Source: Candidatus Magasanikbacteria bacterium RIFOXYC2_FULL_42_28
GTDB taxonomy: Bacteria; Patescibacteriota; Patescibacteriia; Magasanikbacterales; GWA2-37-8
Assembly: GCA_001784435.1 (NCBI GenBank)
Contig: MFQZ01000001.1
Location: 156,205 to 220,204 of the forward strand
Direction: 5' to 3'
Length of the DNA: 64,000 bases
Positions 28,301 through 61,727 of this stretch are shown here, piece after piece. A program made the translations under genes and the position numbers. The notes under the pieces are model-generated. The model was not told the DNA's origin. It saw only the letters and a program-made list of their open reading frames with translations, and did no database searches. The first letter of the stretch is position 1; each line of letters begins with the position of its first letter.

Positions 28301-31300
28301 CGCGCCCATACCCACGCCTTTGGCTAAAACCCACGGATCAAAACGATATAAACCGGTGGTAGTAGCCGCGCGACTGTATTTTATAAAATCAGTACTGGTG
28401 GTACTTTCACAATAATCCACTTCGCCCGTGCCGGTTATACCGTCGCCACACACTGATGGATTGGAATATGACAAAGACGAGCCCAAAGGACGGTAATCGC
28501 TGATATTACAACCTTCTTCCCCGAAAACACACGCGCCTGCATATAATGGTTTAGTAGCAAAATCCCAGCCATCGGTAGAATAAAGCGAAACTTTGTAATC
28601 TACCATTTGACAATATTTATTACACGGCTTGGGATAAACATCTTCATCAAGAAAAGACGCCTCGCACTCCGGATCTTCATCCGCGCTCGTCACCCCATCG
28701 CCACATTGGCTATAAGACACATTTTTATAAAAATCATAAGTGGTGGTGGCGAATCCGGCCGGACGCTCGTTGCCCGGTTGTTGGAACCAGTAATTGGTCA
28801 TGCGCGTACCGGTGTGGAGACATTGAGCCGAGCAGTTGCGACTACTTGTGGTCATCAAAATATCATCAGGTGGTATCGCTACATCGCACTCCTCGCCCAC
28901 CGTCACTTTACGGTCTCCACAAACCGACGCGTTAACATTGTTGGCTTTGGGCTCGGCCGTGGAACCGGTCCACAAACAGTTGAACGCGTTACAATTTACT
29001 CTTTTGGTAATATCAGCACTCCCCGGGTCGCATTCTTCGCCTTTGGTTGATGAAACAAAACTATCACCACACAAACCAATATCAACAGTGCTGGTTGTAT
29101 TCGTGGTATTAGTATTCCCACTATACAAACAAGTCAAAGTACACCCGCCCGTCGCGCTCGGTAGATCGCAATCTTCACCCGCTTCTACTGTGCCATTACC
29201 ACAAGCAATAAACCGGTCTACCGCCCCACTTGTTGTCGTGGCAAACGGCACATCACTTCCCTTGCGCACACAGCGATCGGTACAATTTTTGTTTTGGCCC
29301 AAAGTGCGAAATGGCGTAACTGTCGCCACATCAGTATCCGATGATTGCCAATTCCAACCGACATCATAGGCGTTCAAACGCTGGCCTTGGGCGCTACAAG
29401 CGTCCGGCGCTGAATAGGGCGTGGCAAAATAAAACGATTTGTCGGTTATGCGGCGCGTGCTAAATACTTCAGGCGCGACATCTACCCGATCAATTAAACA
29501 GGCCTGGTCTTTGGTGCGGAATTTCCAAGTTAAATTTTTGTTAAACGGTTTGCTGTAAGAGCTCGGACTAAAAATATTACCCAGCGACCATAAAACATCC
29601 GGCGCTGTGGCAGGAGAAGATAATTCACCCGGGTATTCATTGGAAATGGAAACGACATAATACTTGGACTGTTCTAAATCTGTTTCCGGCGTTAAAATTA
29701 TCAATGACTTATCCGGCTGATTTTTAACATCCGCCAATGTTACCGGTTCGGTAGTAAAACAATTAACATCATTGCATTTATCCAAACGCACCGCCCCGTT
29801 CTCCTTATCCAAATTGGCCGTGCTCATACTGATATTAAATTTCACGCCAATTTCCGCGCTCGGACAGGCCTCAAAACACTGCGGCCAATAATCAACCACT
29901 TTCGGATCGGATAGATCAATCGTGAGTGTGCTCGTGCCGGTTTTGGTTTTGGTAACACTGGCGGTATTAGTGGTAGCATCGGCAAAAATATTCACGGCAT
30001 TAAGCGGGTTGGTCAAATTCACGCCCACGGTATTTTGCAAAGCGGACACTTGTGCCTTATCCATCGTGGTCGTACCGACGATATTGGAATACGCGATATT
30101 ACCTGACCGCCAATTCCAGCCGTAGCCGGAAACATCCATCATAATACAACGGTCTGTGCTCAAACCATTACCGCGATAAAATAAATCGTATTCACGACCA
30201 GAAGCTGTGCGGCCGATTAACAATTCTTCCAAATGGTTGGTCCAATATTCGTACGGCGTTACGATCACTTTTTCTAATTCGCACTGTCTACCGGTTGGGT
30301 CAGTGTGGAACGCAAAACAATAAGCCGTGCCGTCGCCACAAGGTCGGTCGGCAATTATTGGAGTGGAACTTGCCCCCGTGCCATTGGCGCGAATATTGTT
30401 ATATAATTTTACTTGATACCAGGTATTAGGTATCCAATGGCCGGTGTTGTGGTTGTAGGTACTTGTTGGTCTTAAAGATAGGTAGGCGTGCTGGGAATTA
30501 GCACCACTCTGACTTGATACACCGGGCAAAAGCACGCCTCGGCTATCACCGGTATTAACAACCGATACCTTGGTCGGCGCCACTCCGGTTGTTAAACAAT
30601 TTTGTTGAACAGCATCAATACCGCCCGTACATTCCAAAACAACAAGCGCGTTCAGGTCGGTTCCGGGCACGTTAGTATTTATTAAATTAATATCAGCGCG
30701 CGAAAATTCAATGGAGATTAAAGCCCCACGACAAACATTTTCTTGCGGATCACCGCCACCTTGGCGCCATAGCAAACTGGGCGAGGGCGATGGCAATGCC
30801 AAACCGGCCATAACACTCGCGTCACACCGCTCCACTACGCGCAATGGCTCGGGAATACCGGCGGTGGAAAATCGCCACATATAACCGGTGGAAAGAGTGT
30901 CATTTTTGCATCGAAGATTGCCGGCAATACAAACCCCGGGCTGACCGGTATCGCGACCACAACATTGTTCGGTATCTTTATTACAAGCATTGGTATTTTC
31001 TAAACAATTTTGGACGGTAAAATCAACCTGATTACTTACTTTATTATCAGACGCGCGCCTCACTTCTATCGCCCCGGAAACAGTGCCTTCAACTGGCGAC
31101 ACCTTTATTTCATTATCGGTAATAGCTAATTTTTCCGCCACCTTGTTTCTGGAAAAAAATATTGTAGTTGAAATACCGACTGTGTCATCATCAGACAAAA
31201 AATGATCACCGAAAATTTTCAAACCGTCTTCGTCCGGATAAGGAATGGGACCGGAATAATTACTTAAAGCGCAAATACCGGGCGCCGGTTCACCGCCAAC

Positions 31301-34084
31301 AAATTCAAAATAATCATTATTTAAATCAATACTGGAAACATTACGGTTATTTGGTTTAACTTGCACGGAATATTTTTGATTGAGAGACAGACCGGAGGGA
31401 ATTTTTATCAATATTTTTTCATTAGTCCAAGTATCACCGCAATTATCACCAATATAAACCTGGCCATTTGCCACCACCGCGCCGTCGCCATCTTTTCTAA
31501 ACCAAACAACGCCCGGGCTTTCGCCAAAATTCCGACCGGTGATAAATACATATTCATTGGTAGCGCCTGCGCGCGGAGAAATGCCGGTAATTACCACATC
31601 GCTGTTTTCACTTTCTGGCACCTCGGAGCCGGATTTTACAGTGAAACGAATACTATTGCTCTCGGCATTGTCAAGATGGCGTTTTATTTTTACGCCAACC
31701 GCGCCACTGCCCAATTGTGGTACTACGGCCCATAAATTATCCGCAAACCAATTAGTGCCTGATTTCATCGCCGCCACTGTTTCGCCAAAATATATTTCAC
31801 CACCATTAACACCAAAATGATTACCCTCTAAATAAACATCACTTCCCGGAGTGGAACTGCTGGGAGCAATTCTACACAAACCCGGCCGTGAACTGGTATT
31901 AACAATAAAATCCAAATCCAATCCCCAATTGTCTTTAATTAAATCAAGATTATTATCGGTAATATCGGTTCTGCTACTACCGGCGCGACCGTCAACAGCC
32001 GCCTCTACTTTAATTGGGCCACTTTGCGCGTCTGTTGGGACTTGGGCAATGATTTGATTGTCCGTCCAAGTGCGTTTGGGATCGCAGGGTAATTGGGCTT
32101 CTTGCCAGACAATCGGTCCCCCACCAATTTTTTGCATGTTAAAATCATCCAAATAAACGGTGGCGGTGCGAACGGACGCGTATTGATCCAATCCCCACTT
32201 AAAATATAGTTTATTAGTATCATTTTGGCCATGATTTTTTAAAACGTATTCATACTTACGCCAACCACTACTCAAAGGAAAACCGAGCACGCAATCGCTG
32301 TTGCGACTGCCGACACATTCCCCAGTGTTCGCCACTCTTTGTTCGGTAAAATTATAAATTTTGCCACCGTCAAAAGAAATTGTTAAAAACAACTGTGCTC
32401 CAACCGTTGGACTGTACGCGTATACTGAACCAAGATAACTTTCACTTGATTTAATATTTTCAATTGGCGCGGACCACAAATACACCCAGCCATCTGAAAC
32501 GTTTTTATCAATTTTAATCATTTTTTCACCGGTATGAGCCAAGGACGAATTGAGATTTGTTCTGGTGGCTTTCCCAGCTGAAAAAGCTTGGCTGACTGAA
32601 AAACTATTATTTAAAGGACCATCCGCGTACAAACTGGGATTACCATTTATATTACTGACAAAATAAACCTTCCCCGGCTCGCTCCCAAAATATCGCCCAT
32701 TAATGGAAACATAATTCCCCGGCGCGCCGTTGTTAGGATCAAGTCCGCGAATTTCCAAACGTCTTTCGCACACACCGGAACCACTGACGGAAACAGCGCA
32801 AAAACCGGTACAGCAATCAGAATTTTTGGAACAACTATTGCCGGCGACGCACTGCGCTTCTTCCAAACGCAAATCTATCTGCCTACTCACTTCCGCGGTA
32901 AAAGCGGCCCAATCCGTGCCCAAAACACGCAAGTTATAATTGCCAACACGCCAGCCGGATGTCTTCCAAGTAAGGGTAAAAGAGTCCGTTTTTTTACACT
33001 CGGTAAAAGTTTCGTCGTCTTGCGAATACCGGCTATCGCCAACATATAACAACGCGTTTTGCAAACCAAAATCATCATTATAAGTTACGTTTACGGAAAC
33101 ATCCTCACCCCGAAACGCCGAATCCGGCGCGGATATGGTTATGGTTGGCGCTGTTCTATCCACACCCGAACCGGCGGTGAAATCCACCGGCCCACACCCC
33201 TCACCATCGCTACAACTTAAATTTTTGGCTTCATTTTGAGTCGGGTAACCGGCGCGCGTCTTGATACCGTCCGACCGACCACCCGGCAACATCAATTCAT
33301 ATTTACCACCGGCGTCAAAACAGTCGTCCGCCCCGGCATCGCCACAATCACCATTAGGCGTAAACTTAACGGCGGTATCGTTGGTGTCGGCAACATAACT
33401 CCAAACTCCCTCTACCTTTTCCGATGTTGAAACAACATATACAATCCTAAAGGAGCTATTATTTAAAGAATCCAAATTAGGCGGTTCGGAAAATACCACC
33501 ACCGGGTGATAGTTACGGATACAAACATCTCCATTTGGCGGTAATAGTTCAACTTGAAATTCCCGTTTAGGATCGCAACCGGCCGGATTGGGACAGCCAT
33601 TTGGGCCGTCTTCGCCACATTCGCCACCGCGGTCTACCGGACCTTCCCCTTCACGAAATTCACCCGATTCCGGTTCTCGCACGCCATTATAACAATGCGC
33701 TGGCAAAAATCCGGTCGCTCTTGCTAAACTTTTAATAACAAAACTGGTAATGGCAAAAGCGGACAAAATTATTACCAGACCAATTAAGGAATTTTTAATC
33801 AATGTTTTGGCTTCGGTAACTTTTTCTTCGTTCCCGCCGGCCGTCATCCAAATAAACCCGGCGTATAACATCAAACATAAAACTATTATCCCCAAAAACC
33901 CAAGCACGGCGCGAATAATTTTGGCAATCACCAATCGGATATCCGTGCTACCCAAACCAATGGTCTCCCCTATTTCGGCAATCCCCAAATCCTGCGCCCA
34001 CACAGTGGAAGCAAAAAATAAACCGCCAAACAAAAGCGTTAGGACAAATGATGCGATGAATAATTTTTTGGGATTCCTCGGCAT
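22373..34084 (-). CDS. giant (3903 aa) secreted/surface protein: VirB2/TrbC-pilin-like N-terminal module + Ig-like/LamG-like domains + many Cys-rich CGDG...EECD repeats
   Basis: Single uninterrupted ORF. N-terminus has a signal peptide and two hydrophobic helices joined by TAGGNEEKV. The CxxCGDGxxxxGEECD class (myxo-type disulfide repeat) occurs at least 10 times. A LamG/concanavalin-like segment lies near the middle. Confidence 0.85.
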   Translation of the reverse strand: MPRNPKKLFIASFVLTLLFGGLFFASTVWAQDLGIAEIGETIGLGSTDIRLVIAKIIRAVLGFLGIIVLCLMLYAGFIWMTAGGNEEKVTEAKTLIKNSLIGLVIILSAFAITSFVIKSLARATGFLPAHCYNGVREPESGEFREGEGPVDRGGECGEDGPNGCPNPAGCDPKREFQVELLPPNGDVCIRNYHPVVVFSEPPNLDSLNNSSFRIVYVVSTSEKVEGVWSYVADTNDTAVKFTPNGDCGDAGADDCFDAGGKYELMLPGGRSDGIKTRAGYPTQNEAKNLSCSDGEGCGPVDFTAGSGVDRTAPTITISAPDSAFRGEDVSVNVTYNDDFGLQNALLYVGDSRYSQDDETFTECKKTDSFTLTWKTSGWRVGNYNLRVLGTDWAAFTAEVSRQIDLRLEEAQCVAGNSCSKNSDCCTGFCAVSVSGSGVCERRLEIRGLDPNNGAPGNYVSINGRYFGSEPGKVYFVSNINGNPSLYADGPLNNSFSVSQAFSAGKATRTNLNSSLAHTGEKMIKIDKNVSDGWVYLWSAPIENIKSSESYLGSVYAYSPTVGAQLFLTISFDGGKIYNFTEQRVANTGECVGSRNSDCVLGFPLSSGWRKYEYVLKNHGQNDTNKLYFKWGLDQYASVRTATVYLDDFNMQKIGGGPIVWQEAQLPCDPKRTWTDNQIIAQVPTDAQSGPIKVEAAVDGRAGSSRTDITDNNLDLIKDNWGLDLDFIVNTSSRPGLCRIAPSSSTPGSDVYLEGNHFGVNGGEIYFGETVAAMKSGTNWFADNLWAVVPQLGSGAVGVKIKRHLDNAESNSIRFTVKSGSEVPESENSDVVITGISPRAGATNEYVFITGRNFGESPGVVWFRKDGDGAVVANGQVYIGDNCGDTWTNEKILIKIPSGLSLNQKYSVQVKPNNRNVSSIDLNNDYFEFVGGEPAPGICALSNYSGPIPYPDEDGLKIFGDHFLSDDDTVGISTTIFFSRNKVAEKLAITDNEIKVSPVEGTVSGAIEVRRASDNKVSNQVDFTVQNCLENTNACNKDTEQCCGRDTGQPGVCIAGNLRCKNDTLSTGYMWRFSTAGIPEPLRVVERCDASVMAGLALPSPSPSLLWRQGGGDPQENVCRGALISIEFSRADINLINTNVPGTDLNALVVLECTGGIDAVQQNCLTTGVAPTKVSVVNTGDSRGVLLPGVSSQSGANSQHAYLSLRPTSTYNHNTGHWIPNTWYQVKLYNNIRANGTGASSTPIIADRPCGDGTAYCFAFHTDPTGRQCELEKVIVTPYEYWTNHLEELLIGRTASGREYDLFYRGNGLSTDRCIMMDVSGYGWNWRSGNIAYSNIVGTTTMDKAQVSALQNTVGVNLTNPLNAVNIFADATTNTASVTKTKTGTSTLTIDLSDPKVVDYWPQCFEACPSAEIGVKFNISMSTANLDKENGAVRLDKCNDVNCFTTEPVTLADVKNQPDKSLIILTPETDLEQSKYYVVSISNEYPGELSSPATAPDVLWSLGNIFSPSSYSKPFNKNLTWKFRTKDQACLIDRVDVAPEVFSTRRITDKSFYFATPYSAPDACSAQGQRLNAYDVGWNWQSSDTDVATVTPFRTLGQNKNCTDRCVRKGSDVPFATTTSGAVDRFIACGNGTVEAGEDCDLPSATGGCTLTCLYSGNTNTTNTTSTVDIGLCGDSFVSSTKGEECDPGSADITKRVNCNAFNCLWTGSTAEPKANNVNASVCGDRKVTVGEECDVAIPPDDILMTTSSRNCSAQCLHTGTRMTNYWFQQPGNERPAGFATTTYDFYKNVSYSQCGDGVTSADEDPECEASFLDEDVYPKPCNKYCQMVDYKVSLYSTDGWDFATKPLYAGACVFGEEGCNISDYRPLGSSLSYSNPSVCGDGITGTGEVDYCESTTSTDFIKYSRAATTTGLYRFDPWVLAKGVGMGATGTNAVGAGVAQVALISATTNQNTAGGSGTAKTDSGRFEIKCGYQNDDECVSVAGLPNDNTYGVGNNSCCYARPQKTANYPLDDADDVCLNTSISASFDHPIDKNSITGNFLIARQLLATSTCYTGGEDVTELVVAFENQQLSWPKRLLKRALAWFNNLFGRQTASADVWCVGGDTGAVEVNNEFDPDTKLFSTSTLKVNLNRPLSADADYTIILKNGLKDTRGVSIGAVIRWSFETGNEICEVENISLSPTEVYFARANATTTMHVTARTDASRGNQIIAPIANFYAWDYIWGPAPSVSNPFVEFAPATTSASVANGDNILKALNKNGEIDVYATANVVANQYTARRGPVATGQAHAIVFLCENPWPPKDLPSNGARIFPYEDKLNNDDGFNLATDAFDGSSIDPSTVEETNTSGYYNFRTYYCADSGVSGRGDDLPYLRAAVQTSTAQLEVAKGACSFTGEECDLGVAADEQCNAKFTVTTTRSVFYSKYSTKICRVAKAPAYDSAALYYLDKNNSPLSCTNQDSCDDDDGFKVWKDTIPSDYDSTICSNLIYPSLNFEDPVCIAQPQLLKRFIFTDTNSRGVSDAVGISVFSNQYFLSPRDWLAGNKQSGGKDFNVNNFRDLKVGGYDAVSDGNNVYVEALNYSAGGSANLKSNIYLFSLNKNSGATMKNVFEQFMNNLTLNTNLTNTNYCVDSLEVDPPVLSPDSVPCRTDIDCASAGHSEQKCANQIDKLKRNYNRLRGLGAIEKSLANYADANAGKYPPLPQGTYLSGQTVSTWPSWSVLGTATGRSLPTDPINRLAPAGSCAYTADNIAKFCHVDTDCDSTITDNKCLLHDATTNWLTTGTSTADRRFSFACDPTSLAYRYIVSTSSPNYMVRYLLEPKEYSLSYAFNALIPKFIVTTSRFVSDPTGICLASEEISTMQSGFCGDGKLNLNLGEDCDPPQALEYGNVCTGGTRTLKTCSANCKWEETEGGVDCLDRTKCGNGKLDLGESCDDGVLNGRYGKCNNTCEATSTLYCGNGALDEPYEFCDTVSSKCAYATGAGVSTPSPYACSVYAMSNSYSCKSDCSGFGSYCGDGVIDASQGEECDGEPVCSVGGSSGVRNCLSCRKVSALAEWGMDNLAGLSPGSRPASGGAIRYVYPFSGDKFNLHKIFSVINVSSTATGDFPQYPQVVSDGKIGGAFKNSYNKRLFLYTSSTLPNYSGFEITGTSSISLWINPDDHPWDSVNVHRFNTIIEKGGMDTNNCGFTLRRDISNNDLLFYAMGAISSTYSARCSVADNYERQPGGGARFAGSPDPLTISGAAPPNTWTHLVVVNNSASARVYVNGVLKITTSKPLNNLTDCGNYSFGADNWYGSAINYVNIVGGYTHSDHTHPYSGSTASGSGCLTSSGAIEGDWMIPKQDWYFYYGKMDELKYFDRALSTPEVKDLFDSYRDLGGWMCTASTTPNSGPVAPTGCGNGHVESETEACDNSQVNAVTGALIYNNNGQTCRPGYNRPCTYCSADCRNVIRKEASGWCGDGVINTSSPERCENVGINTYSSVTGTNIYGTITDDVNGYHVYRCDQLVAPLNVSTSYWANLIYQTNLEQYTPRQIGDRKCNSSCSEIQDNCVACGKDNTNGVAVSGNIINVIEPSSIDPIYDYLYAGTSHSGLLELFYSKPTVNYSQSSTISLAQMLRVGIDSPTASSYALREGGNGIGSVKVNSDLRCSIKDDNLAAYYLTVNGYRAFVTNTPNAPIRRKFFPVRADSTPADFDLLLSPRINASSTQQKGHIRVVLSWVGDASKQLSAGFVTAINGGNTVVAKEGTDFNSAIGRSYFTETGSNFLKQGIWYHGITTTASGLNMESFTINTNAMGANPFIFYVRTDDDSAINYYRNNGGVKVEVYEPDFDTNIDYASDSRFSFPVRTFELKDARQLSALDLDYDPAIDDNPNASAWHVFNIKSLYPNPVASAEVSLEENLNYIRSSRNYLRFSY

Positions 34085-34106: not shown

Positions 34107-36221
34107 TTACGGTTCGTTAATACAATTTTCAATACTGCTCCCGATGCTTGGTCGCGCTCCGCCTTTACAACAAAACGAATTGTTAATATTGTCAGTCACC
34201 GCGCAACAATTAGTGCTATTCCCGTCGCTATCCACCACACAGTCCGCTGAATCCAAATCACCACCGGCCGATTCGTTTGGACCCTTGCCCGGATAAAAAC
34301 AATTAAAATTCACATCTACTACAACTGAAGTTACCACCGGTAAATAATCCTGACGCAAACCATCCGATCGCAAGCCATCCAAAAATGGACCGTGTCGCAT
34401 ATTTACTGTGGTTTGACCGCCGGATGATGACGCGCGCGGAACTTTGGAAAGCCGAGGATATTGCGGTGGATTTTCTCTTATTTCAATATCATACAACGGA
34501 TCCATCCGCATTAATTTGCTAAATAACATTGTTAATGGCTCGCGCGGCGGCACATAACCGGCGTCTAAACCCGGGTGAACATTGATTAAATAGGGCGGCT
34601 CTAAATCCATTTCATCTTCTATCGTAAATTTCCACCAATCATTGTCCGGTTTTTCCCATTGGCTTTCCGCTCCGGCTGACAAAAATACCGCGCCGATATT
34701 AGGCGCCACATCTACCACTTCGTCCTTATTGCCATTCAAAGCGTTGCCCACCATATCCATCACACCGGAAAAAGGCAAAGCTTCAAAGGTGGACGAATTA
34801 ATTGTTTGGCCGGCTTTTAATAACAATTCATACCCATCAGGTGGCAAACAATAAATCGGCATACCACAAGTATTCACGCCACACTGCGTTGTGGGCGTAA
34901 ATTCTAAGGTGCGATAACCGTTGGTTAAAACAAAATTACCGGCCGGCCTAACGCCAGTATCGGTTTTTAAAAATATATTATCGCCAGCCAAAGCAAAATA
35001 TCCGCTCGTAGCGGTAAACTCGCCTTGCACGCCGGACGGATCAATGGCTTCATTAAAATCAATTTGAATAACGGAATTTTTGGGCGCGGAATCATTGTTG
35101 CGAGCCGGGTAAACCCGCTCTACTATCGGTGGAGTTAAATCCAATTCAGTATTAACGGTAAATTGCCATAAATAATAATTATCCCCGGCGCCGTACCTGA
35201 TATCGGCGGTAGACGCGGTAATGGCTCGCGGATTATCGTTAAGCGAATCATCTAAGCGAATATCTTTTCCCAAACGCACGCTATAGACGGTATCTTCCAA
35301 AGTATTGCCTAAATAACCGCCACCAGTAGCGCGATCTGCCAAATTGGTGATGGGTTTTAAAACTATTGTATACACGCCGCCGGGCAAACCCGCTGTTGAG
35401 GTAATATATGCTCCGGTAATTACCGCGTCGGCAATGGACTCGCCGGTGGCGATATTTTTGATATCAATTAAATTATCGCTTAACTTACCATCCATTTTTT
35501 TCAGTCGATCACAATGATCTAACCAATTAAATGACGAGGTAGTAATACAATTCCCTAAAATACCATCCCCCACACCAAGCACTCCGTCAACGGTGCGCCC
35601 AGTGTCAGTCCGTCCATCATCACTAACATCATCCACCAAATCCTCCAATCGAATCGGTTTTCTAAAAGTAATCGCGATTTTGGTATTGCGCGCGACATCA
35701 ATTTGATCACGCTCGGGGTAATGATCTTTAATTATTCTCCCCAAAGCACCCGAACCGACAAAATTAGTCGTGCCCGGCGGATTTAAACCACCACTACCAT
35801 CATTAAAACTAACACCCAGCATTTTCATAATAAACAACACAATGCTGTAAGAGGCCAAAATAATCGCGAGACCAATGGCCGCGTTTTTCAAAATCGCTTT
35901 GGCTTTACCAATCTGTTCGTCATTGCCACCGGCCGTCATGTACAAATAACCGCCGTAAATAATTAAGACCAACAAAATAATACCAATAAACCCGAGCACG
36001 GCGCGAATAATCCGCGCGATAATTACCCGAATATCCAAAGATGGCAAACCGGCCGCCTCGCCGGTAATTTGAGTGCTTTCGGTAATAATATCGGTTGGCG
36101 CCACTTGCGCGAAAACCGGAAAAGCCGGAGAAATCAATAACAAAACCGCCGCTAATAATACCCCCAAGAGCGCGGCGGTTTTGAAAAATTTAAAATAAGT
36201 TTTTCTAATCCATTGAAGCAT
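34107..36221 (-). CDS. 704-aa paralog sharing the pilin-like N-terminal module of the giant protein
   Basis: DIRVIIARIIRAVLGFIGIILLVLIIYGGYLYMTAGGNDEQIGKAKAILKNAAIGLAIILASYSIVLFIMK versus giant DIRLVIAKIIRAVLGFLGIIVLCLMLYAGFIWMTAGGNEEKVTEAKTLIKNSLIGLVIILSAFAITSFVIK. Start moved to MLQWIRKTYFKFF (signal peptide). Confidence 0.75.
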   Translation of the reverse strand: MLQWIRKTYFKFFKTAALLGVLLAAVLLLISPAFPVFAQVAPTDIITESTQITGEAAGLPSLDIRVIIARIIRAVLGFIGIILLVLIIYGGYLYMTAGGNDEQIGKAKAILKNAAIGLAIILASYSIVLFIMKMLGVSFNDGSGGLNPPGTTNFVGSGALGRIIKDHYPERDQIDVARNTKIAITFRKPIRLEDLVDDVSDDGRTDTGRTVDGVLGVGDGILGNCITTSSFNWLDHCDRLKKMDGKLSDNLIDIKNIATGESIADAVITGAYITSTAGLPGGVYTIVLKPITNLADRATGGGYLGNTLEDTVYSVRLGKDIRLDDSLNDNPRAITASTADIRYGAGDNYYLWQFTVNTELDLTPPIVERVYPARNNDSAPKNSVIQIDFNEAIDPSGVQGEFTATSGYFALAGDNIFLKTDTGVRPAGNFVLTNGYRTLEFTPTTQCGVNTCGMPIYCLPPDGYELLLKAGQTINSSTFEALPFSGVMDMVGNALNGNKDEVVDVAPNIGAVFLSAGAESQWEKPDNDWWKFTIEDEMDLEPPYLINVHPGLDAGYVPPREPLTMLFSKLMRMDPLYDIEIRENPPQYPRLSKVPRASSSGGQTTVNMRHGPFLDGLRSDGLRQDYLPVVTSVVVDVNFNCFYPGKGPNESAGGDLDSADCVVDSDGNSTNCCAVTDNINNSFCCKGGARPSIGSSIENCINEP

Positions 36222-36264
36222 GAGCAACGGATTAAATGAATATATTCCGACTGAAACGTCGGGA

Positions 36265-36501
36265 TTAGCGTCTACGAGTTTGTACTTCGGGCAAACGACC
36301 AATTTTTTTCAGATATTCCATTTTGGACGATACCGTTAAGCGATGAATAGCACTACGCTTGCGCGCGGTTTTGCTTTTATCGCGATCGTGGAATCTGATT
36401 TTTTTGGCCTGCAGGATTTTGCCTGACTGTTGCCAGCGCTTTTTTACGCGCCGCATATACGCCTCAAAGGACTCACTCCGCTTGCGTTTTATTTCTGACA
36501 C
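36265..36501 (-). CDS. rpsU: 30S ribosomal protein S21
   Basis: Basic 78-aa protein, ...YMRRVKKRWQQSGKILQAKKIRFHDRDKSKTARKRSA...; GTG start with upstream GGAGGTG RBS and a TTGACT-17-TATACT promoter. Confidence 0.75.
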   Translation of the reverse strand: MSEIKRKRSESFEAYMRRVKKRWQQSGKILQAKKIRFHDRDKSKTARKRSAIHRLTVSSKMEYLKKIGRLPEVQTRRR

Positions 36502-39057: not shown

Positions 39058-40657
<1,600 letters not shown>

Positions 40658-41164
40658 AAAAAAAGTTCAATTAAGAACTATCAGAGAAGAGTGAAAAAAA
40701 TTCACTCTGCTAGATTTGAATCTCTTTTGACTGCTAAAGCCAAAAAGAGTTCTGGATTTATTCTGTATGTACGTCTTTCATTGTTTGTACTCAACAAACA
40801 ACTAAGACAATGTTTAGAGAAATAGATTTTGTGATTTTTGTCACGATTTGTATTGTCAACGAACACTGCTTCGCTACGCTACGCAGTGCAAGCATCTACT
40901 TGGACACGTTGCGCAGTGTAAACTTTCTTTCTTTTTACAGAAAGAAAAAAGAGGAACCAAAAATTTCAGTTACTCTTTTTTCTTTCCAGTATCCTATCTA
41001 CCTAACATTCCAAACAACAGCTTTTGGACTTAGAAGAAATCAATTGTTATAAAGTACTTGGTTGCCTTGATTTGTATTAAGCAAACGCAGTTTAACATAT
41101 TGTCAGAAACCTGTCAAGGGGTGGTTTGGGGTAAGGTGGGGATAAAAAAACCTTGATGTGTAGA

Positions 41165-41677: not shown

Positions 41678-42373
41678 TCATTTTTTTCGCCACTCCGCTA
41701 TTTTTTTATGGTCGCCAGACAGCAGCACTTTTGGTACTTTTAATCCTAAAAAATTATCCGGGCGAGTATAAAGAATTTCAGATTTTTGAAATTTTGATTT
41801 TGGATTTGATTTGACATTGGAAATTGGAAATTTGTCATTAAACGTCTCATTACTTAACGACTCCTGATTCCCCAACACCCCCGGTATTAATCGGGAAGTC
41901 GCCTCCACCACTGCCAACGCTGGCAATTCCCCACCTGATAAAACATAATCCCCGACTGAAACTTTTTCATCTACAAATTTATACACACGCTCGTCAAATC
42001 CTTGGTAGCGCCCGGAAATTAAAATTAGACGGTCTAGTTTAGAAAATTTCTTGGCCATGGTTTGGTCGAATTTTTTTCCTGCAGGATCTAGTGCGATAAT
42101 TTTCAATTTACAATTTTCAATTTTCAATTTCTTGCCACCACGCGCTAACCCCAAACTCTCCAAACAATAATAAATTGGATCCACTTTCAAAACCATTCCT
42201 GCTCCCCCGCCATATTGCGTGTCATCCACCGGCTGGTGTTTTCCAACCGCAAACTCGCGCCAATTATGAGCGATGATTTTTATTAAATTTTTCTTTTGGG
42301 CGATGCCTAAGATACTATCATTGGAGTAGTGATAGATTAGGTCGGGGAAAATTGTAAGGATATCAAATTGCAT
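41678..42373 (-). CDS. trmD: tRNA (guanine37-N1)-methyltransferase
   Basis: ...LISGRYQGFDERV..., SVGDYVLSGGELPALAVVEA. Start moved to MQFDILTIFP; MEIGYLDFEI in the track is repeat A. Confidence 0.9.
   Translation of the reverse strand: MQFDILTIFPDLIYHYSNDSILGIAQKKNLIKIIAHNWREFAVGKHQPVDDTQYGGGAGMVLKVDPIYYCLESLGLARGGKKLKIENCKLKIIALDPAGKKFDQTMAKKFSKLDRLILISGRYQGFDERVYKFVDEKVSVGDYVLSGGELPALAVVEATSRLIPGVLGNQESLSNETFNDKFPISNVKSNPKSKFQKSEILYTRPDNFLGLKVPKVLLSGDHKKIAEWRKK
41778..41840. repeat. family A element (partial) downstream of trmD
   Basis: tttgaaattttgattttggatttgatttgacattggaaattggaaatttgtcatt. Confidence 0.55.
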
Positions 42374-43628: not shown

Positions 43629-43660
43629 CTTGACAGCCTGCGCAAACGCTGTATAATTAA
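43629..43660 (+). promoter_or_regulatory. consensus sigma70 promoter TTGACA-16/17-TATAAT driving the leader and tRNA-Arg
   Basis: cttgacagcctgcgcaaacgctgtataatt. Confidence 0.6.
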
Positions 43661-43767: not shown

Positions 43768-43846
43768 GCGCCTATAGCTCAATTGGATAGAGCGCCGGCC
43801 TACGGAGTCGGTGACGATAAGGGTTCGAATCCCCTTAGGCGCGCCA
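43768..43846 (+). tRNA. tRNA-Arg (anticodon ACG), CCA encoded
   Basis: gcgcctatagctcaattggatagagcgccggcctacggagtcggtgacgataagggttcgaatccccttaggcgcgcca; anticodon loop ctacgga. Confidence 0.8.
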
Positions 43847-43906
43847 GCACGAAAAAGCTCGACGGTCATCACGACGTCGAGCTTCTTCATTTTTATATAG
43901 TTTTTT

Positions 43907-44047
43907 TGTCATTCCCTACTAGATCCCGGCTTTCGCTGGGACGAATCCAGTCGCAATTTGTCATTTTGATTTTGAAATTTGAATTTGATTTGAAATTGGA
44001 AATTTGACATTCGTAAAGGGATTCCTCCACTGCGGTCGGAATGACAA
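43907..44047. repeat. family B element carrying a nested family A element (43958-44015)
   Basis: tttgtcattccctactagatcccggctttcgctgggacgaatccagtcgcaa[tttgtcattttgattttgaaatttgaatttgatttgaaattggaaatttgacatt]cgtaaagggattcctccactgcggtcggaatgacaaa. Confidence 0.6.
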
Positions 44048-44051: not shown

Positions 44052-47000
44052 TTAGGCCGGCACCCTCACATCCTCCAACTTCACACTCAACAACTTTGAC
44101 ACACCTTCGCCACCCATAGTAACACCGTACAAAACATCCGCGCCGTGCATCGTAACACGATTATGCGTAATCACGATAAATTGTGATTGGCGCGAAAGTT
44201 CGCTCATGATATTGGCAAAGCGCAAAGTGTTGGCTTCGTCTAACGCGGCTTCTACTTCGTCCATTACAACGAACGGCGCTGGGTTGCAGGACAAAATCGC
44301 ACAGACGAGCGCGATCGATGTAAGTGTGCGTTCACCGCCGGATAACGCGCTTAGATTTTTTATTTTTTTACCGGGTGGGCAGGCGGTAATATCAATCCCA
44401 GTTAACGTAGTAATTTTTTTACGTTTAGATTCGTCAGCCAAACCGTCCGCTCCCACCCCCTCTGCTTCTCCCCCTCGGGCAGGGGGAGACATGCCAATGC
44501 CCGCCACCGCACCCTCCAACTCTGCGTCCTCATCAAGCACCTCACCATAAATTTCTTCCAAAGCCGCGCTCCCACCATTAAATAAAATTTTGAAATAACG
44601 ATCAAATTCTTTGCGAATTTTTTTGAAAGATGCTTCGCGTTTCTTCTTCATTACTTCAGTTAATTCTTCAATCATTTTTTCTAAATCTGCTGTTGCTTTA
44701 TCTAAATCTGATAATTGCGCGGACAAGAAATCAAATTTTTCTTTGGTCGTAGCGTGTTCTTCAACCACACCTTCTTCAATACCACCAATTAAACTTAATT
44801 GATATTTTAATTTCTGAATTTCATCGGCGGTCACGGCCAACCCAGCACTATCCAACGCCTCAACAATCCGCTCCGACAAAGTCGCAGGTGAAGCGGAAAT
44901 TTCATTGCCCGCCTCGGCCATTAAGTCCTCGCGCTTGGTTTCTAATTTCGCCAATTGAATTTTCAAATCATTGCGCGAATTGATAATTGTGTTCACCGCT
45001 ACCTGCGCTTTCTGCATTTCATCTTGCAGATGAAACACGCGTTGTTTTTTCTCTTCTTCTTTATTATTAAAATCTTGAATTTCGCGGGAGGCACTCACAA
45101 CTAATTTTTCCGCGTCCGCAATATTTTTTTCAATCAAACTTTTTTCTTTACCCAAACCACCCAAATATTTACTATGCTCTTCCGGACTCATCTGGATAAA
45201 ATTTCTTTCTTTTTCCAAATCTGTTAATTCCAATAATTTCTGACGCACTTGCGTGCCCACAACCGCACTTTCAGCTTTGTATTTTTCCATTTCCGCGCGG
45301 CTAAACAAAATTTCACCGCGTTTTTCTTCTAACCGTTTTTCCACAATTCGCAAATCTTCGCGTAATCTTTCAACAACTTTTTGCGGATCATCACCACCCG
45401 CTTCCGGCGCTAACCATTTACCCGAAAATCCCGGGCCCCGACGATTACCTTTGCGATAACCACCACGCATCACGCCTTTACGCTCAATCACATCGCCGTC
45501 CAAAGTAACCATCCGAAATCGCCCAATTCCAATTCTCTGCGCTGTTTCCAAATTTTCTACCAACAAATTATCTCCCAAAACAAAGGAAAAAATTTCACGA
45601 AAACGATTATCGAATTTAATTAAATCAATTGCCCAACCGATTACACCCGCCTGCCCCAAAACATCATCTGTTTCTTGCCCCAACTCGCGCCCGCGGATTT
45701 TATTCATTGGCAAAAATGTCGCCACACCCATTCGCTCAGCGCGCAAAAATTGAATTGCGTTTTTTGCAGTCTCATCATCGCCTACAACAAGCGAAGACAA
45801 ATGTGAACCAGCTGCGACTTCCAAAGCCAAACGATATTCTTCATTCACCTCGCCCAATTCCGACAACATTCCATATACCTTGCCCAATCGCGAGCGATTA
45901 TCCAACACTGCCTTCACCGCCGACAACCCGCTCATTTCAAAATATTGACGTTCGGATTGCGCTTGATAGGTTTGGTGTTCAGCTTGTGATAATTTGACCG
46001 TTAATTCCGTGCGTTCAATTGATAAATTCTCTACTTCCCGATCTTTTTCCGCGATTATTCCATTCAATCGCGTCAACGCTAAATCCGCTTGCGCCTGACC
46101 AGTCTCCAAAACCGAACTTTCATTTTTTAAATCTAAAATCTTTTTTTCCAACCAGCCCAAATTTTGTTTACCGGCATCTGAATACGCGGTCTGTAATTTC
46201 CCAGACAAAATCGCCAACGATCTTTCAAAATCATTTTTTACTGCCATCGCTTGCTGATGTTTTTGTTGTAATTCCGCAAACACTTCCGCGCGCGTTGCCA
46301 ATTGCGCTATCTGCGATAACTCATTTTGAATATTCGTTAAATTTTCAAACGCGGTGCGATATTCTTTTTCAATTTTATTTAATTGCGTGTCCAATAAATC
46401 TGTTTCTTTTTTATTGATCAAATACAACGATCCATAATATTTTTCTTGACACTCACGCAAAGCCAATTCCACTTCCTGACGTTTTTCTAATTTTTTAACT
46501 TGACGCGATAATAATTTTAAACGCGGTTCAATTTCGGCGAGTAGTCGTGTCGCCTGTTCAGAATTTTCACGCGTGCGCGCCAATTTCAAAGACGCTTGGT
46601 GTTCTTTAATTTGAAATTCTTTAATTCCCGATGCTTCGTCTAAAAAATCTTTACGTTCGGATGGTGTCACCACCAAAAGCCGATCAATCGTGCCCTGCGA
46701 AATAATACTATATGAATGTTGCCCAAATTGGGCGCGCGCCAAAAGCAAATGAATGTCAAGCAAACGCACCGGACTATTATTTATCAAATATTCACCTTCG
46801 CCCGAGCGATACAACCGACGCGTGATAACAATCTCCGGATAATCAATGCCAAACCCACTGCCGGTATTATCCAAAACCATCGTCACCGAACATGCCGACA
46901 ACGCCCCTTTGTCAACCGAGCCATTAAAAATTACATCTTCACTTTTTTTCCCGCGCAATTGTTTCAGCGAGGTCTCACCCATCACCCACCGAATCGCGTC

Positions 47001-47141
47001 CACAACATTGGACTTGCCCGAACCATTCGGCCCCACGACCGCGGTAATACTAAAACGACCGTCCTTGGGCGGTATAAATTCCAAAATGGTCTGACGGGCA
47101 AATGATTTAAAGCCGTCAATTTCTAAGCGTTTGAGATACAT
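44052..47141 (-). CDS. smc: chromosome segregation protein SMC
   Basis: Walker A GPNGSGKSN, long coiled coils, hinge, C-terminal LSGGE signature and Walker B VMDEVEAALD. Contains a GC-rich in-frame insertion at about 44447-44530. Confidence 0.9.
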   Translation of the reverse strand: MYLKRLEIDGFKSFARQTILEFIPPKDGRFSITAVVGPNGSGKSNVVDAIRWVMGETSLKQLRGKKSEDVIFNGSVDKGALSACSVTMVLDNTGSGFGIDYPEIVITRRLYRSGEGEYLINNSPVRLLDIHLLLARAQFGQHSYSIISQGTIDRLLVVTPSERKDFLDEASGIKEFQIKEHQASLKLARTRENSEQATRLLAEIEPRLKLLSRQVKKLEKRQEVELALRECQEKYYGSLYLINKKETDLLDTQLNKIEKEYRTAFENLTNIQNELSQIAQLATRAEVFAELQQKHQQAMAVKNDFERSLAILSGKLQTAYSDAGKQNLGWLEKKILDLKNESSVLETGQAQADLALTRLNGIIAEKDREVENLSIERTELTVKLSQAEHQTYQAQSERQYFEMSGLSAVKAVLDNRSRLGKVYGMLSELGEVNEEYRLALEVAAGSHLSSLVVGDDETAKNAIQFLRAERMGVATFLPMNKIRGRELGQETDDVLGQAGVIGWAIDLIKFDNRFREIFSFVLGDNLLVENLETAQRIGIGRFRMVTLDGDVIERKGVMRGGYRKGNRRGPGFSGKWLAPEAGGDDPQKVVERLREDLRIVEKRLEEKRGEILFSRAEMEKYKAESAVVGTQVRQKLLELTDLEKERNFIQMSPEEHSKYLGGLGKEKSLIEKNIADAEKLVVSASREIQDFNNKEEEKKQRVFHLQDEMQKAQVAVNTIINSRNDLKIQLAKLETKREDLMAEAGNEISASPATLSERIVEALDSAGLAVTADEIQKLKYQLSLIGGIEEGVVEEHATTKEKFDFLSAQLSDLDKATADLEKMIEELTEVMKKKREASFKKIRKEFDRYFKILFNGGSAALEEIYGEVLDEDAELEGAVAGIGMSPPARGGEAEGVGADGLADESKRKKITTLTGIDITACPPGKKIKNLSALSGGERTLTSIALVCAILSCNPAPFVVMDEVEAALDEANTLRFANIMSELSRQSQFIVITHNRVTMHGADVLYGVTMGGEGVSKLLSVKLEDVRVPA

Positions 47142-47215
47142 ATGTCATTGCGAGCGAAGCGAAGCAATCTCTACGTCAATAATTATATCACAATTTAAAA
47201 ACTCAATCAAATAAA
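47141..47215 (-). promoter_or_regulatory. SMC promoter (TTGATT-17-TATAAT with ttgtg extended -10) plus family B leader abutting the ATG
   Basis: Minus strand: ttgattgagtttttaaattgtgatataattattgacgtagagattgcttcgcttcgctcgcaatgacatATG. Confidence 0.5.
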
Positions 47216-50682: not shown

Positions 50683-50711
50683 GACAACCGCCGACAATAG
50701 GTATATAATCA
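50683..50711 (+). promoter_or_regulatory. sigma70 promoter TTGACA-17-TATAAT for nrnA-like gene (about 130-nt AT-rich leader)
   Basis: cttgacaaccgccgacaataggtatataat. Confidence 0.55.
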
Positions 50712-50842
50712 CCTGTTATATAAATATCAAAATGAAAATATCAAAAATCAAAATTTTAGTGTCGCTTCGCGACCGATTACACTAATTTTACATTTTACAC
50801 TGTCATTTTCCATTTTGATTTTTACATTTTAAATTCACTACC

Positions 50843-52756: not shown

Positions 52757-52880
52757 GCATAGCAATCATTCCGACTAAGTTGGGATGATTTTTATTTTCG
52801 CTTATTTTAGCCAAAAAAAGGCAATTATCCACCTTGTCAAGGGTGCAGGTCTTGACAAAACCTTAAAAATGTGCTATACT

Positions 52881-53180
52881 ATGTAGTTGCTGATAACAGT
52901 GCCGTATTTGAATAAACGGAAGAACTGATAGCAAGAAGTATCCCATTAAATAACATTAACGGCAAGAACTGGATATAGGCGTTTATTCTTTTGAAAAAGA
53001 GCTTAAACGCCCGTATCCACGACAAGCATGGGGATGTGTTGGCGGATAGTACAGGCGCAAGCTCGTCTTCTCCATTAACACATCTTCTTGGATGCGGACT
53101 ATTCCCACTGACTTTGTCGGCGGGAGCAAAAAAAACACCACGAACCCAATCAGGTTCGTGGTTTTATATTATTTTTTTAA
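52881..53180 (+). ncRNA. candidate about 300-nt structured non-coding RNA of unknown class
   Basis: TTGACA-17-TATACT promoter at 52847-52875; intrinsic terminator ccacgaacccaatcaggttcgtgg plus a T-run at about 53140-53180; extensive internal complementarity; no credible ORF. Confidence 0.4.
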
Positions 53181-53300
53181 ACACTAAATACTAAACCCTA
53201 AATTCTAAACAAATTCAAAATCCAAATGTCCAAAAGTAATTGATTTGAATTTTTAAAATTTGAATTTGTTTAGAATTTAGTATTTAGAGTTTAGAATTTT
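53181..53300. repeat. family C palindromic element
   Basis: aaacactaaatactaaaccctaaattctaaac...gtttagaatttagtatttagagtttagaatttt. Confidence 0.6.
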
Positions 53301-55258
53301 TACTCTACGGCCGGCTCCGTGCTCAAAACAGTAGCCGGCGAACTACCACCACTAACTCCAATTGTTGTGCTACTTGTCGCCCCCACCAAACATATCTGAG
53401 GTAAAGCTCGATAAAAACTTTCAAACACGCGATCAATTTTTTCGCCTGCCGGGGTAATGCGACTATATTCAAAACTCGCGACCGCGCCTTTATACGCGCC
53501 TTGGCAGGTCTCCACGCCCGGTTTTAAATTTTCCGTATAAGTGATTTGTTTTGCTCCCGGCGAAATCCATTTGCTTACGATTGGATGCGTGTACCAACCT
53601 TTGCGTCCGTCTAATTTTCCCCATAACGTAAAAACCAATTCCATTTTTTTATAATCCGCTTCCGCTTGTAAAAGCAAATATCCACCCGTATCATTTAAAA
53701 ATTTCAAATCCAAAGACGGCTCATACAAAGTGGCGTCTGTTCCCGGATTGCCATTGACCGGATCGGCGTAATAACTGACGACCAAAGAATGATTGCGCCG
53801 TTGGGTGATATCCATTCCCGAATTCATCGCCATCCGAAACATCGTCGTGCCGATTTGACACATCCCCCCACCCACCTCCGCTTTTATTTCATTGCCTTTG
53901 ATAACCAATTCCGGCAGGTAGCCATTTTCTTCAGTATAAGGACTGGAATATTTATTGGTAGAAAAATCTTCACCCGGTTTTATCAAAATCCCATTTAATA
54001 ATTTGACGGCATTGGCAATATTTTTAATCCGATTGGTATGACTGCCGACAAACGATGACACGCCCACGCCAATCACCCCTTCAATTCCCAAATCATTTAA
54101 GCTGGCCATCTGCACTTTTGGTTCCGCCACGGCAACGGTTAGGCCCACGGTTTTACTCAAACTGGCCGGATGATAATTACGCTCCTCAAACGCCTTGGCC
54201 AAATCCGTATAAGTTTTTTCTAAATCAATTCGCAATCCGACCGCGCTGGCCTGGAATTCTTTTACTTTATCATTTTCCATCACAAACTTGGCATCACGCG
54301 CCGGCACGTCCACGTCTTGGCGCTGTTGTTCCAAATATTCACCCATTTTTCCGCTATCCAAAGAAAAAATAATCACACCACTCGCGTCTTTTTTCAAGCG
54401 CAACCATTCCCCCATTTGCGTGGCAGTAATTACCCACTCTCGGCGCGCTTTGGTCTGCGGGGCAATATAATTTAACGATAGATTACCGTAATTCAAAATT
54501 TCCGAAACGCGGGGCGCGACCGCTTGCGCGTCTTTTAAAGTAATTGCCGGGTCAAAATATTTCGCTTCCAATTTAATCGTGTTAAAACGCAATTGTCCTA
54601 AATCAGTTTTTATTTGGTTGATTATCACCGGAATATCAAAATTTTGTCCGGCCATTTCCGGAATTATTTCCATCTGTCCCGTCGGCCAATCGTGAAACAC
54701 CACACCGGCATCGCGCGGATCATCGGATAATTTTTTTAAATTGTCGCGCAAAATTTCCGTAGCGGACAAATCATTGATAACCACGGGCGCGACCAATACC
54801 ACTTTTTTAAAACGTAAAAATAACGGGTAAAATAATTTTTCATACCACGCCCCGGCGCGACCGACACCCAAAGATAAATCAACCAAACTGTCGCCGTCAA
54901 ACGCCAATATTTCCGCGACCGTATCGCTGTCTGAAACCGTGTTGATTTTAAAAGACATATCGGCGCGCGCGGTGTGAGCGTCAAACGCCACCCCCTCTTT
55001 GGCCAAGCGATCATTCAAATCTTCAATAAATTTTTTAACTTCCGCACCGGTGCTTCCACCCAAATGGTACGATCCGACCGAAACCCCCGGATAAACTTCG
55101 TCTTGATAAATTGAGACATACGCGGCGCTCGCGCCAAACACAACAGCAATAAACACCGCGACAATTAACAAAAAAACACCGGCGAATTTAAAAATTCTCC
55201 GACCACGCGTGGGTGGTGTTGATAACAAAGGAGTTAAATTTTCTAGAATATCTGACAT
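53300..55258 (-). CDS. VanW-family protein with N-terminal TM anchor
   Basis: C-terminal VanW core GGGMCQIGTTMFRMAMNSGMDITQRRNHS. Confidence 0.7.
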   Translation of the reverse strand: MSDILENLTPLLSTPPTRGRRIFKFAGVFLLIVAVFIAVVFGASAAYVSIYQDEVYPGVSVGSYHLGGSTGAEVKKFIEDLNDRLAKEGVAFDAHTARADMSFKINTVSDSDTVAEILAFDGDSLVDLSLGVGRAGAWYEKLFYPLFLRFKKVVLVAPVVINDLSATEILRDNLKKLSDDPRDAGVVFHDWPTGQMEIIPEMAGQNFDIPVIINQIKTDLGQLRFNTIKLEAKYFDPAITLKDAQAVAPRVSEILNYGNLSLNYIAPQTKARREWVITATQMGEWLRLKKDASGVIIFSLDSGKMGEYLEQQRQDVDVPARDAKFVMENDKVKEFQASAVGLRIDLEKTYTDLAKAFEERNYHPASLSKTVGLTVAVAEPKVQMASLNDLGIEGVIGVGVSSFVGSHTNRIKNIANAVKLLNGILIKPGEDFSTNKYSSPYTEENGYLPELVIKGNEIKAEVGGGMCQIGTTMFRMAMNSGMDITQRRNHSLVVSYYADPVNGNPGTDATLYEPSLDLKFLNDTGGYLLLQAEADYKKMELVFTLWGKLDGRKGWYTHPIVSKWISPGAKQITYTENLKPGVETCQGAYKGAVASFEYSRITPAGEKIDRVFESFYRALPQICLVGATSSTTIGVSGGSSPATVLSTEPAVE

Positions 55259-57738: not shown

Positions 57739-57829
57739 CTATATATTAAAAATCCGTCCCGACTTAACCGGGACGGATTTTTGTTTCATCATTTTTGCCT
57801 TGTCCTGCGTAGCCAAAGGCGAAGCGGGA

Positions 57830-60773: not shown

Positions 60774-60813
60774 ATATTTATTGCTTATGCGTTCTTAAAC
60801 TATTGAGTCGTCG

Positions 60814-61699: not shown

Positions 61700-61727
61700 T
61701 CAAACCAGACAACGCCATTTGTCATCC

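Follow-up and report, generated by a model that had tools for sequence, protein, structure and literature searches.

In the genome of Candidatus Magasanikbacteria bacterium RIFOXYC2_FULL_42_28 (Patescibacteria, candidate phyla radiation), from groundwater, a composite of two repeat families lies between the convergent genes tRNA-Arg(ACG) and smc. It occupies positions 43907–44046 of a 64,000-nt stretch of contig MFQZ01000001.1 (G+C 44%), which was analysed at its full length and is referred to here as the window. One arm of an AT-rich palindromic repeat built of 7-nt words (family A) stands in it between two inverted ends of a hairpin repeat that carries a TGTC tag (family B), and this arrangement is real and not a product of chance. 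That the A arm was inserted into a B pair that already existed is a reading for and against which we find the evidence evenly balanced. Sequence comparison indicates that both families do get inserted, and the better evidence for this comes from other sites than from the composite itself.

An earlier sequence-only reading had described the site as a family A unit nested in a family B element, and had quoted three strings for it. These proved to be exact and contiguous, at 43907–43956 (50 nt), 43957–44011 and 44012–44046 (35 nt), although the middle string, given as a 58-nt A unit, is actually 55 nt long. The outer termini are complementary, as had been noticed, over 9 nt (TGTCATTCC against GGAATGACA). 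Both outer ends, 43907 and 44046, carry a TGTC tag, and they lie 140 nt apart; ~73 nt separate the ATC of the left unit from the GAT of the right unit, and the A arm meets its flanks at ...GGGACGAATCCAGTCGCAA on the left and CGTAAAGGGATTCC... on the right. The composite has no coding capacity.

Membership of the parts

Family A units are AT-rich arms of ~55 nt with a period of 7, made of words such as AATGTCA, AATTTCC and AATCAAA, and the arm runs from TTTGnnATTTTGATTTTG to GGAAATTTGACATT, as does the segment 43955–44012. When this segment was aligned with 13 other A arms it matched end to end at 80–95% identity, with a best score of 75 as compared with 26 ± 5 for shuffled sequences, and its ends match those of the single arm in trmD and of the arms of eight complete palindromes. 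Its outer 17-mer, AATGTCAAATTTCCAAT (43995–44011, minus strand), is one of seven exact copies in the window, where 31 matches with three or fewer mismatches were found and 0.98 were expected; Tandem Repeats Finder reported period 7 at 43971–44011. The terminal 17-mer was absent from all other genomes fetched. Eleven isolated matches to it on viral contigs lay in unrelated contexts and were judged compatible with chance.

The usual form of family A is an inverted pair of arms, which makes a palindrome of ~130 nt. There are five such two-armed palindromes in the window, to which the flank adds at least two, and they occupy intergenic spacers; the four that were folded (at 2524, 3550, 42390 and 51819) gave z-scores of −3.7 to −4.6. 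The composite contains a single arm, which by itself is unstructured (folding z +0.2). What lies between the B ends is thus genuine family A sequence, as had been claimed, but a single arm of a two-armed palindrome and not the whole element. Family A, we conclude, is a palindromic repeat of a generally familiar kind that is specific to this lineage.

A period of 7 and low complexity might also be expected if an AT-rich stretch had grown in place, by slippage of 7-nt words in a B spacer, and were not a copy of family A. The spacers of B pairs do vary in length, and an AT-rich spacer of ~50 nt is found at L021 12169–12296 (the related loci and contigs compared are denoted by L-numbers; L005 is the closest relative, and L178 belongs to the same genome as the window). 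Slippage would not, however, account for an exact 17-mer common to six other copies, for a word order shared over 55–58 nt at 80–95% identity, for a score of 75 where shuffles reach 26 ± 5, or for the coincidence of both arm ends with the ends of other arms. We consider such growth in place very improbable.

In a family B unit the TGTC tag is followed by a hairpin, whose stem opens with AT and has a short loop, and then by a C(T/C)C tail; units normally form inverted pairs with their tags outward and a short spacer between them. The strict terminus TGTCAT(T/C)C(C/T) occurs 12 times in the window, as compared with 1.0 expected from dinucleotide shuffles (largest count, 4), and 12 of 12 occurrences stand at B ends. 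Downstream of each plus-strand B end of the window, that at 43907 included, an inverted B end follows at a distance of 68–140 nt; five of these partners fit the strict pattern, and the partner of 10999 is a variant, TGTCATGCT, at 11066. The window holds 14 canonical or near-canonical units. TGTC directly precedes the stem in all 13 canonical ones and in ~35 units in relatives.

A covariance model trained on ten 28-nt B units recovered all remaining units of the window and of relatives. Over 32 distinct copies the stem is 98.9% paired, with compensatory double changes in six of its eight pairs; neither the pairing nor the covariation score was reached by any of 500 shuffles, with the caveat that the alignment had been fitted to the structure. 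A MAFFT alignment of units of unequal length, in which the 3' stems were out of register, was discarded and redone with equal-length units. The A-T and T-A pairs that start the stem are invariant (31 and 32 of 32 distinct copies, respectively). Stems of 8 bp with loops of 4–5 nt are found in the units at 8090, 8164, 12529, 10999 and 11066, while other units, the right unit of the composite among them, have 5-bp stems and loops of 10–23 nt. C is the first letter of the tail in all units, and the tail reads CTC or CCC in the window. Five intact outward-tagged pairs are present, with spacers of ~17–33 nt and halves that are 56–85% alike; folded as single-stranded DNA, four of the five gave z-scores of −4.2 to −8.1, and the 12388 pair gave −2.7.

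By the same model, built without it, the right unit of the composite scores 19.8 bits (window-wide E 0.017). Its AT-started stem is perfect over 5 bp and leads into a C tail (CCC), its subfamily is shared with L005 11643–11685 and L020 9159–9197, and together with its spacer remnant it falls in the same subfamily as the uninterrupted pair in trmD of L005. The description of both flanking pieces as halves of a family B element therefore stands for the right unit, a bona fide member, but for the left part only at its terminus, the remainder being divergent. The interior of the left part holds a CCCGGC-TTTC-GCTGGG hairpin and the end GAATCCAG, after which a spacer starts with CAGTCGCAA; the stem of the left unit is only 4 bp long and its tail is CCAG. 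At L020 12654–12704 there is a similar left unit, which has a CCCGCTTTCGCG hairpin inside it, and the left part of the composite may itself be composite.

Insertion into a pair or a mosaic cluster

The spacer provides the main argument for insertion into a single pair. When the A arm is excised, its flanks CAGTCGCAA and CGTAAAGG align with the spacers of the intact pairs at 15838 and 61720, and for this reason the arm is placed at the spacer apex; the sequence that then results, GAATCC-CAGTCGCAA followed by CGTAAAGGGAT, resembles those two spacers. The presence of exactly one inverted partner for each plus-strand B end in the window also supports a single pair. Alignment with uninterrupted copies, one of which had been given as 61728–61800 and truly spans 61720–61799, had been proposed as a check on the nesting. 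The match of the flanks to the two spacers is favourable to it, but the halves of the composite are only 54% alike.

The same parts can be arranged as a mosaic repeat cluster, resembling bacterial interspersed mosaic elements (BIMEs) or Neisseria intergenic mosaic elements (NIMEs), in which the A arm simply lies between separate B units. The B sequences would then comprise a degenerate compact pair at 43907–43945 (a truncated plus unit and a minus unit) and a separate right half-pair at 44013–44046, and A could be older than the B units, younger, or of intermediate age, or could owe its place to recombination among dispersed repeats. We regard this as a substantial possibility, if one that falls short of an even chance. 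Against it, one inverted partner stands within 140 nt of each plus-strand B end of the window, as would be the case for a single pair, and GAATCC-CAGT on the left of A and CGTAAAGGGAT on its right together resemble one spacer of subfamily 2. In favour of a mosaic, half-pairs consisting of a single unit and a piece of spacer exist at 12485–12529 and at L005 4940–4978, the interleaving of A arms with small GC hairpins is reversed at 13960–14091 and 50709–50839, and the literature reports trimers and clusters as well as mixtures in which Neisseria CGTC-1 units are interleaved with members of other repeat families.

Much turns on the minus-strand hairpin at 43919–43945, within the left part. Read as a plus-strand unit the left part scores 8.3 bits, as compared with 18.5 bits for this inner hairpin, and for this reason the locus can be read as a plus remnant, a minus unit, the A arm and a further minus unit, like the plus-minus-minus trimer at 12388–12529. 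The inner minus 'unit', on the other hand, has neither a proper tag nor an AT stem start, and the unit at L020 12654 shows that a CCCGCTTTCGCG hairpin can occupy the loop of a plus unit. The hairpin is either a decayed minus-oriented B unit or a structured loop of the left unit.

Besides these low and high scores for the two parts of the left sequence, the latter comparable to scores of genuine units outside the training set, several results weigh against insertion of A into an existing pair. No empty or uninterrupted orthologous site was found among the genome, metagenome and same-strain contigs compared. Exact-protein look-ups with S16 and SMC yielded contigs 100% identical to the window, which are also present in Rifle-type groundwater assemblies, and no others; in the closest relative (81% SMC identity) this position is taken up by a different 2-kb segment, and tRNA-Arg is lacking there; in other Magasanikbacteria smc runs directly into rpsP; a metagenome scan gave a best identity of 50%; and the SMC fragment P0004 is 94% identical but has no contig on record. 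L165, considered as a source of the orthologous site, belongs to the L005 type. No insertion scar of any kind is visible at the junctions of the composite. The inner sequence of the left part has no complement of CGTAAAGGG, and the 54% likeness of the two B halves compares with 56–85% for intact pairs. Without the A arm the element folded only moderately well (z −2.97), and over all 140 nt the z-score was −1.85. Since no hairpin can form from one arm alone, a mechanism for its insertion needs an extra step of arm loss. Searches by Pfam and regular expression revealed no GIY-YIG gene, no gene for a REP-associated tyrosine transposase (RAYT; REP, repetitive extragenic palindrome) and no other transposase gene in the window, in 12 kb of flanks or in related loci. 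Finally, the published degenerate pattern for Ssn-related motifs (SRMs) matched none of the B units in the window, its sole match there being at 13990–14018.

Simple insertion of A into B and a mosaic cluster are thus not separable at this locus, and it is not proven which piece arrived first. The A arm does lie between two inverted B ends, at the apex of a spacer, as the sequence-only reading had it; insertion itself is unproven. That reading had gone on to call the nesting direct evidence that family A is or was mobile, and had suggested a search for a target-site duplication. None is visible and no empty site was recovered, so that the claim of direct evidence falls. We conclude that the nested arrangement neither dates nor proves mobility and is a minor observation.

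Table 1. Coordinates of the composite, its neighbours and other copies of the two families in the window
Feature	Position	Strand	Evidence or remark
Left B part	43907–43954	+	TGTC tag and ATTCC half-stem at 43907–43915, then long divergent interior
Unit-like hairpin TTCGTCCCAGCGAAAGCCGGGATCTAG inside left part	43919–43945	−	18.5 bits, window-wide E 0.035
Full-length family A arm	43955–44012	−	Outer to inner, minus strand: AATGTCAAATTTCCAATTTCAAATCAAATTCAAATTTCAAAATCAAAATGACAAATT
Right B unit and spacer remnant	44013–44046	−	Minus strand: TGTC-ATTCC-GACCGCAGTGGA-GGAAT-CCC-TTTAC
Intact B pair, tags outward	8090–8164		Sequence, unit model
Intact B pair	10999–11066		Sequence, unit model
Intact B pair	12388–12484		Sequence, unit model
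Intact B pair	15838–15917		Sequence, unit model
Intact B pair	61720–61799		Sequence, unit model
Single B unit adjoining the 12388–12484 pair	12502–12529	−	45.2 bits; completes a plus-minus-minus trimer
Single B unit just upstream of smc start	47143–47172	+	14.4 bits
Complete A palindrome between KH-domain gene and trmD	42390–42522		Fold tested
Complete A palindrome	2524–2656		Fold tested
Complete A palindrome	3550–3682		Fold tested
Complete A palindrome	16507–16624		
Complete A palindrome	51819–51951		Fold tested
Single A arm in trmD	41785–41840	−	
Single A arm	14040–14075		
tRNA-Arg(ACG)	43768–43846	+	Convergent neighbour of composite
Consensus promoter of tRNA-Arg	43630–43657		
Palindromic hairpin with flanking A and T runs	43858–43885		Read from sequence
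smc	44052–47141	−	Open reading frame list; Pfam SMC_N E 2.7e-66, plus SMC_hinge

The smc stop codon (44052–44054, minus strand) is 5 nt from the right B end, and the composite is presumed to lie within the 3' untranslated region of smc, ahead of a shared terminator; the hairpin at 43858–43885 looks, from its letters, like a bidirectional terminator. It is conceivable that the composite is not selfish DNA but is under selection for a function, for example as a terminator or a structured 3' untranslated region of smc or tRNA-Arg. Its position between convergent genes is a typical one for REPs, which are often transcribed, and terminator-like hairpins at 3709, 6045, 52761 and 57749 use the stem of a B unit. 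However, a search of the locus against Rfam, with gathering and E-value thresholds, matched no family, shuffled sequences fold as well as the composite (z −1.85), both the tRNA and the composite are missing from this position in relatives, and a separate hairpin of the bidirectional terminator kind is already available at 43858–43885. A selected function therefore seems to us an explanation of very slight probability.

Insertion of both families at other sites

The A arm in trmD, 86% identical to the arm of the composite, lies in frame and adds 15 residues, DKFPISNVKSNPKSK; an alignment of TrmD proteins showed that this insert is absent from L005, L016 and L017. An AT-rich stretch of trmD at 42098–42130, considered as a second A insert, proved by protein alignment to be mostly native lysine-rich coding sequence. 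For family B, the rpsP leader of L008 carries a single unit (8189–8216) that is absent from seven relatives, and a B pair after rpsP is present in L009 only. In-frame B pairs occupy a variable region of SMC in L008 and L009 (~7637–7710) and in L010 (7480–7535), and are not found in smc of L022, L011 or L016. Similarly, an in-frame B pair in trmD of L005 (11599–11685) accounts for ~29 extra residues. The extra length of the NDK open reading frame, considered as a repeat, is a native insert instead.

A nested insertion much cleaner than the composite itself is present in the same genome, ~7.4 kb beyond the window start. There, at L178 19880–19909, the left arm of an A palindrome is cleanly interrupted by TCGCCCTGCGGGAGACCACCCGAAGGGTGG, a GC-rich double-hairpin module of 30 nt. 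A module homologous to TCGCCCTGCGGGAGACCACCCGAAGGGTGG was also seen at L112 5040–5075, where it adjoins a small GIY-YIG open reading frame in a split or duplicated tRNA gene.

No target-site duplication was found at any A or B junction examined, nor when filled and empty sites were compared. The ends of both families, TG...CA (TGTCA...TGACA), would be in keeping with classical miniature inverted-repeat transposable elements moved by a DDE transposase, A having entered B by cut-and-paste with duplication of the target. In addition to the lack of duplications, this explanation is opposed by the absence from the window and its flanks of any insertion sequence with matching ends and of any transposase gene, by the behaviour of B units as single hairpins of ~28 nt with covarying stems, which is REP-like, and by the existence of single arms and single units on their own. 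We give it very little credence.

Several further features of the window and of related loci resemble family A. A GC hairpin stands at the centre of A-type AT-rich palindromes at 13960–14091, 50709–50839, L005 11255–11346 and L095 150–330; this is the reverse of the nesting in the composite. The one at 13990–14018 is the sole match to the SRM pattern mentioned above, and AT-rich palindromes of a similar kind are present in other genomes of the candidate phyla radiation. The spacer between the KH-domain gene and trmD, which holds an A palindrome here, holds a different palindrome in L005 (11255–11346), 85% like window 50731–50832 and bordered by masked N runs. In the 16S rRNA gene (39059–40663, minus strand), ~116 nt (39407–39524) stand in place of the 4-nt apex loop of helix 40, at positions ~1158–1161 of the Rfam SSU model. 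The core of this insert is an AT-rich period-7 palindrome with CTCTAAA and TTTAGAG words, set between two small GC hairpins, and it resembles the 'CTAAA' palindromes at 9828–9964 and 53176–53306.

The single B unit just upstream of the smc start is present at the same position in the closest relative (L005 4940–4978), with a different stem: ATTGC...GCAAT in the window and ATCCCGAT...ATCGGGAT in L005. Terminator-like hairpins of the form AAAAACC-ATCCCGAC-TAA-GTCGGGAT-GGTTT are found at 3709–3739, 6045–6075, 52761–52791 and 57749–57779, and at L005 8176–8205; they share the stem of the B unit at 12502–12529 but have no TGTC tag. Terminators may have been derived from B-type stems by co-option, or B-type stems from terminators.

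Other observations in the region concern neither family. A tRNA at 60813–60897 (minus strand; Rfam tRNA, 47 bits) has a long variable arm and the loop CTTGAGG, and its anticodon was unassignable by ARAGORN. Between rpsP and the KH-domain gene, upstream of the latter, a conserved motif of ~40 nt, GCAGAGCTGGTGGA..CCACACGTCGACAGACTG, is found in L008–L017 and L022 and may be a leader structure. An open reading frame of 3903 residues spans 22373–34084 (minus strand); its two downstream neighbours (21150–21902 and 21921–22376) contain TSP3 repeats, and its upstream neighbour (34107–36302) gave Ig-like and type IV secretion system (T4SS) pilin matches.

Proposed history and relation to known systems

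If the A arm was inserted, we suppose that an outward-tagged B pair already stood downstream of smc and that a family A unit came into its spacer at the single-stranded apex. The process would produce no target duplication and would depend on hairpins or on single-stranded DNA. The entering unit was perhaps a whole palindrome that later lost one arm and ~4 nt of the left spacer; alternatively, A arms might be modules that can be copied on their own. The B pair would subsequently have decayed, its left unit now having a long structured loop. We infer this order of events, as we do the enzyme. The process was probably structure-dependent and acted on single-stranded DNA, because the tag is accompanied by a covarying hairpin, target duplications are absent and inserts are found repeatedly at hairpin apices: an 18-nt insert in the loop of the right unit in L008, the insert in the spacer here and the 116-nt insert in helix 40 of 16S rRNA.

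An enzyme of this kind would recognise the tag and hairpin as single-stranded DNA, with TGTCATTCCGACGAAAGTCGGAATCTC as a candidate substrate. By analogy with the Neisseria system discussed below, the best candidate for family B would be an Ssn-type GIY-YIG nuclease, with a Y1 transposase as the alternative. No GIY-YIG gene of the Ssn type (cd10448) is present in the 64-kb window, its 12 kb flanks or the Magasanikbacteria loci, and Pfam gave no Y1_Tnp (RAYT) match among the window proteins. The sole regular-expression match to GIY-YIG, the open reading frame in L112, was rejected as an Ssn candidate; it lies inside a split tRNA gene and has no flanking B units. We think it unlikely, though conceivable, that family A and its 'CTAAA' variants together represent an undescribed class of heptamer-built palindromic mobile elements in the candidate phyla radiation that prefer hairpin apices, with REP-pair spacers and the 16S helix 40 loop as candidate targets, and that are tolerated in frame in essential genes such as trmD. 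On this same unlikely reading one tag-recognising single-strand enzyme might move both families, because A and B both end TGTCA...TGACA.

Family B is a member of a class of REPs tagged with CGTC or TGTC, and comes from a phylum outside those listed for the class in 2013. CGTC-tagged REPs, to which Neisseria dRS3 and Rickettsia RPE-6 and RPE-4 belong, have been reported from five phyla, Patescibacteria not among them, and without a dedicated transposase (Di Nocera, De Gregorio and Rocco, 2013; PMC3733652). Their tag is often changed to TGTC, their AT-started stems are 8–9 bp long with loops of 4–5 nt and a 3-nt tail (consensus CCA), copies occur inside genes, and pairs are mostly outward-tagged ('HH'), with spacers of 20–100 bp and units that are often unlike (PMC3733652). 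Family B shares the unpaired TGTC tag, the AT-started stem, 8 bp with 4-nt loops in its best copies, the 3-nt tail, outward pairs of often unlike units, location between co-directional or convergent genes and copies in genes. It differs in that many units have a 5-bp stem and loops of 10–28 nt with inner mini-hairpins, and in a tail of CTC or CCC rather than CCA. The class of dRS3- and NTS-type hairpins is thereby extended to Patescibacteria, whose genomes are very small and streamlined and in which abundant selfish repeats are not expected.

Family B also resembles REPIN/RAYT systems in that inverted pairs are likely to be the replicating entity, with single units as remnants, and in the lack of target duplication, but its tag is TGTC or CGTC and not GTAG. 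Interleaving of tagged hairpin repeats with other families, the architecture of the mosaic-cluster alternative, is seen in Neisseria intergenic mosaic elements and in enterobacterial BIMEs; the site described here is one small cluster rather than a large array, and family A is unrelated to Neisseria RS elements. In Anabaena variabilis, long AT-rich palindromes with ATTTGA and TCAAAT words host REP pairs (PMC3733652). Tagged REP pairs are likewise associated with AT-rich palindromes here, and the palindromes at 13960–14091 and 50709–50839 have a central GC hairpin, but in the composite the nesting is reversed, a palindrome arm lying inside a REP pair, and the sequences are unrelated.

As in the case of Rickettsia palindromic elements (RPEs), essential genes of these bacteria carry the repeats in frame and are not destroyed by them: in relatives B lies in smc and trmD, and in the present genome trmD has an A arm. 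Family A has no sequence relationship to RPEs; it is built of 7-nt words and was found in this lineage only.

A family B unit also resembles the Neisseria Transformation Sequence (NTS), CGTCATTCCCGCGMAVGCGGGAATCYRG, which, like the SRMs, belongs to the same class. The GIY-YIG nuclease SsnA, the product of a gene with these repeats at its flanks, binds the NTS as single-stranded DNA and cuts it (PMC11893778, 2025). This suggests that the tag and hairpin of family B may likewise be recognised as single-stranded DNA. The two differ in that the window, its flanks and the related loci yielded no GIY-YIG gene, and any role in transformation would be by analogy only. The B units of the window share GTCAT, the hairpin and ATC with the NTS, and the single unit at L008 8189–8216 carries the 24-nt NTS core, GTCATTCCCGCGAAAGCGGGAATC, exactly. 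The likeness is genuine, although by the SRM pattern the window units do not count formally as members of the motif. With a unit identical to the NTS core in so distant a phylum, the involvement of an Ssn-type nuclease or another tag-reading enzyme becomes testable.

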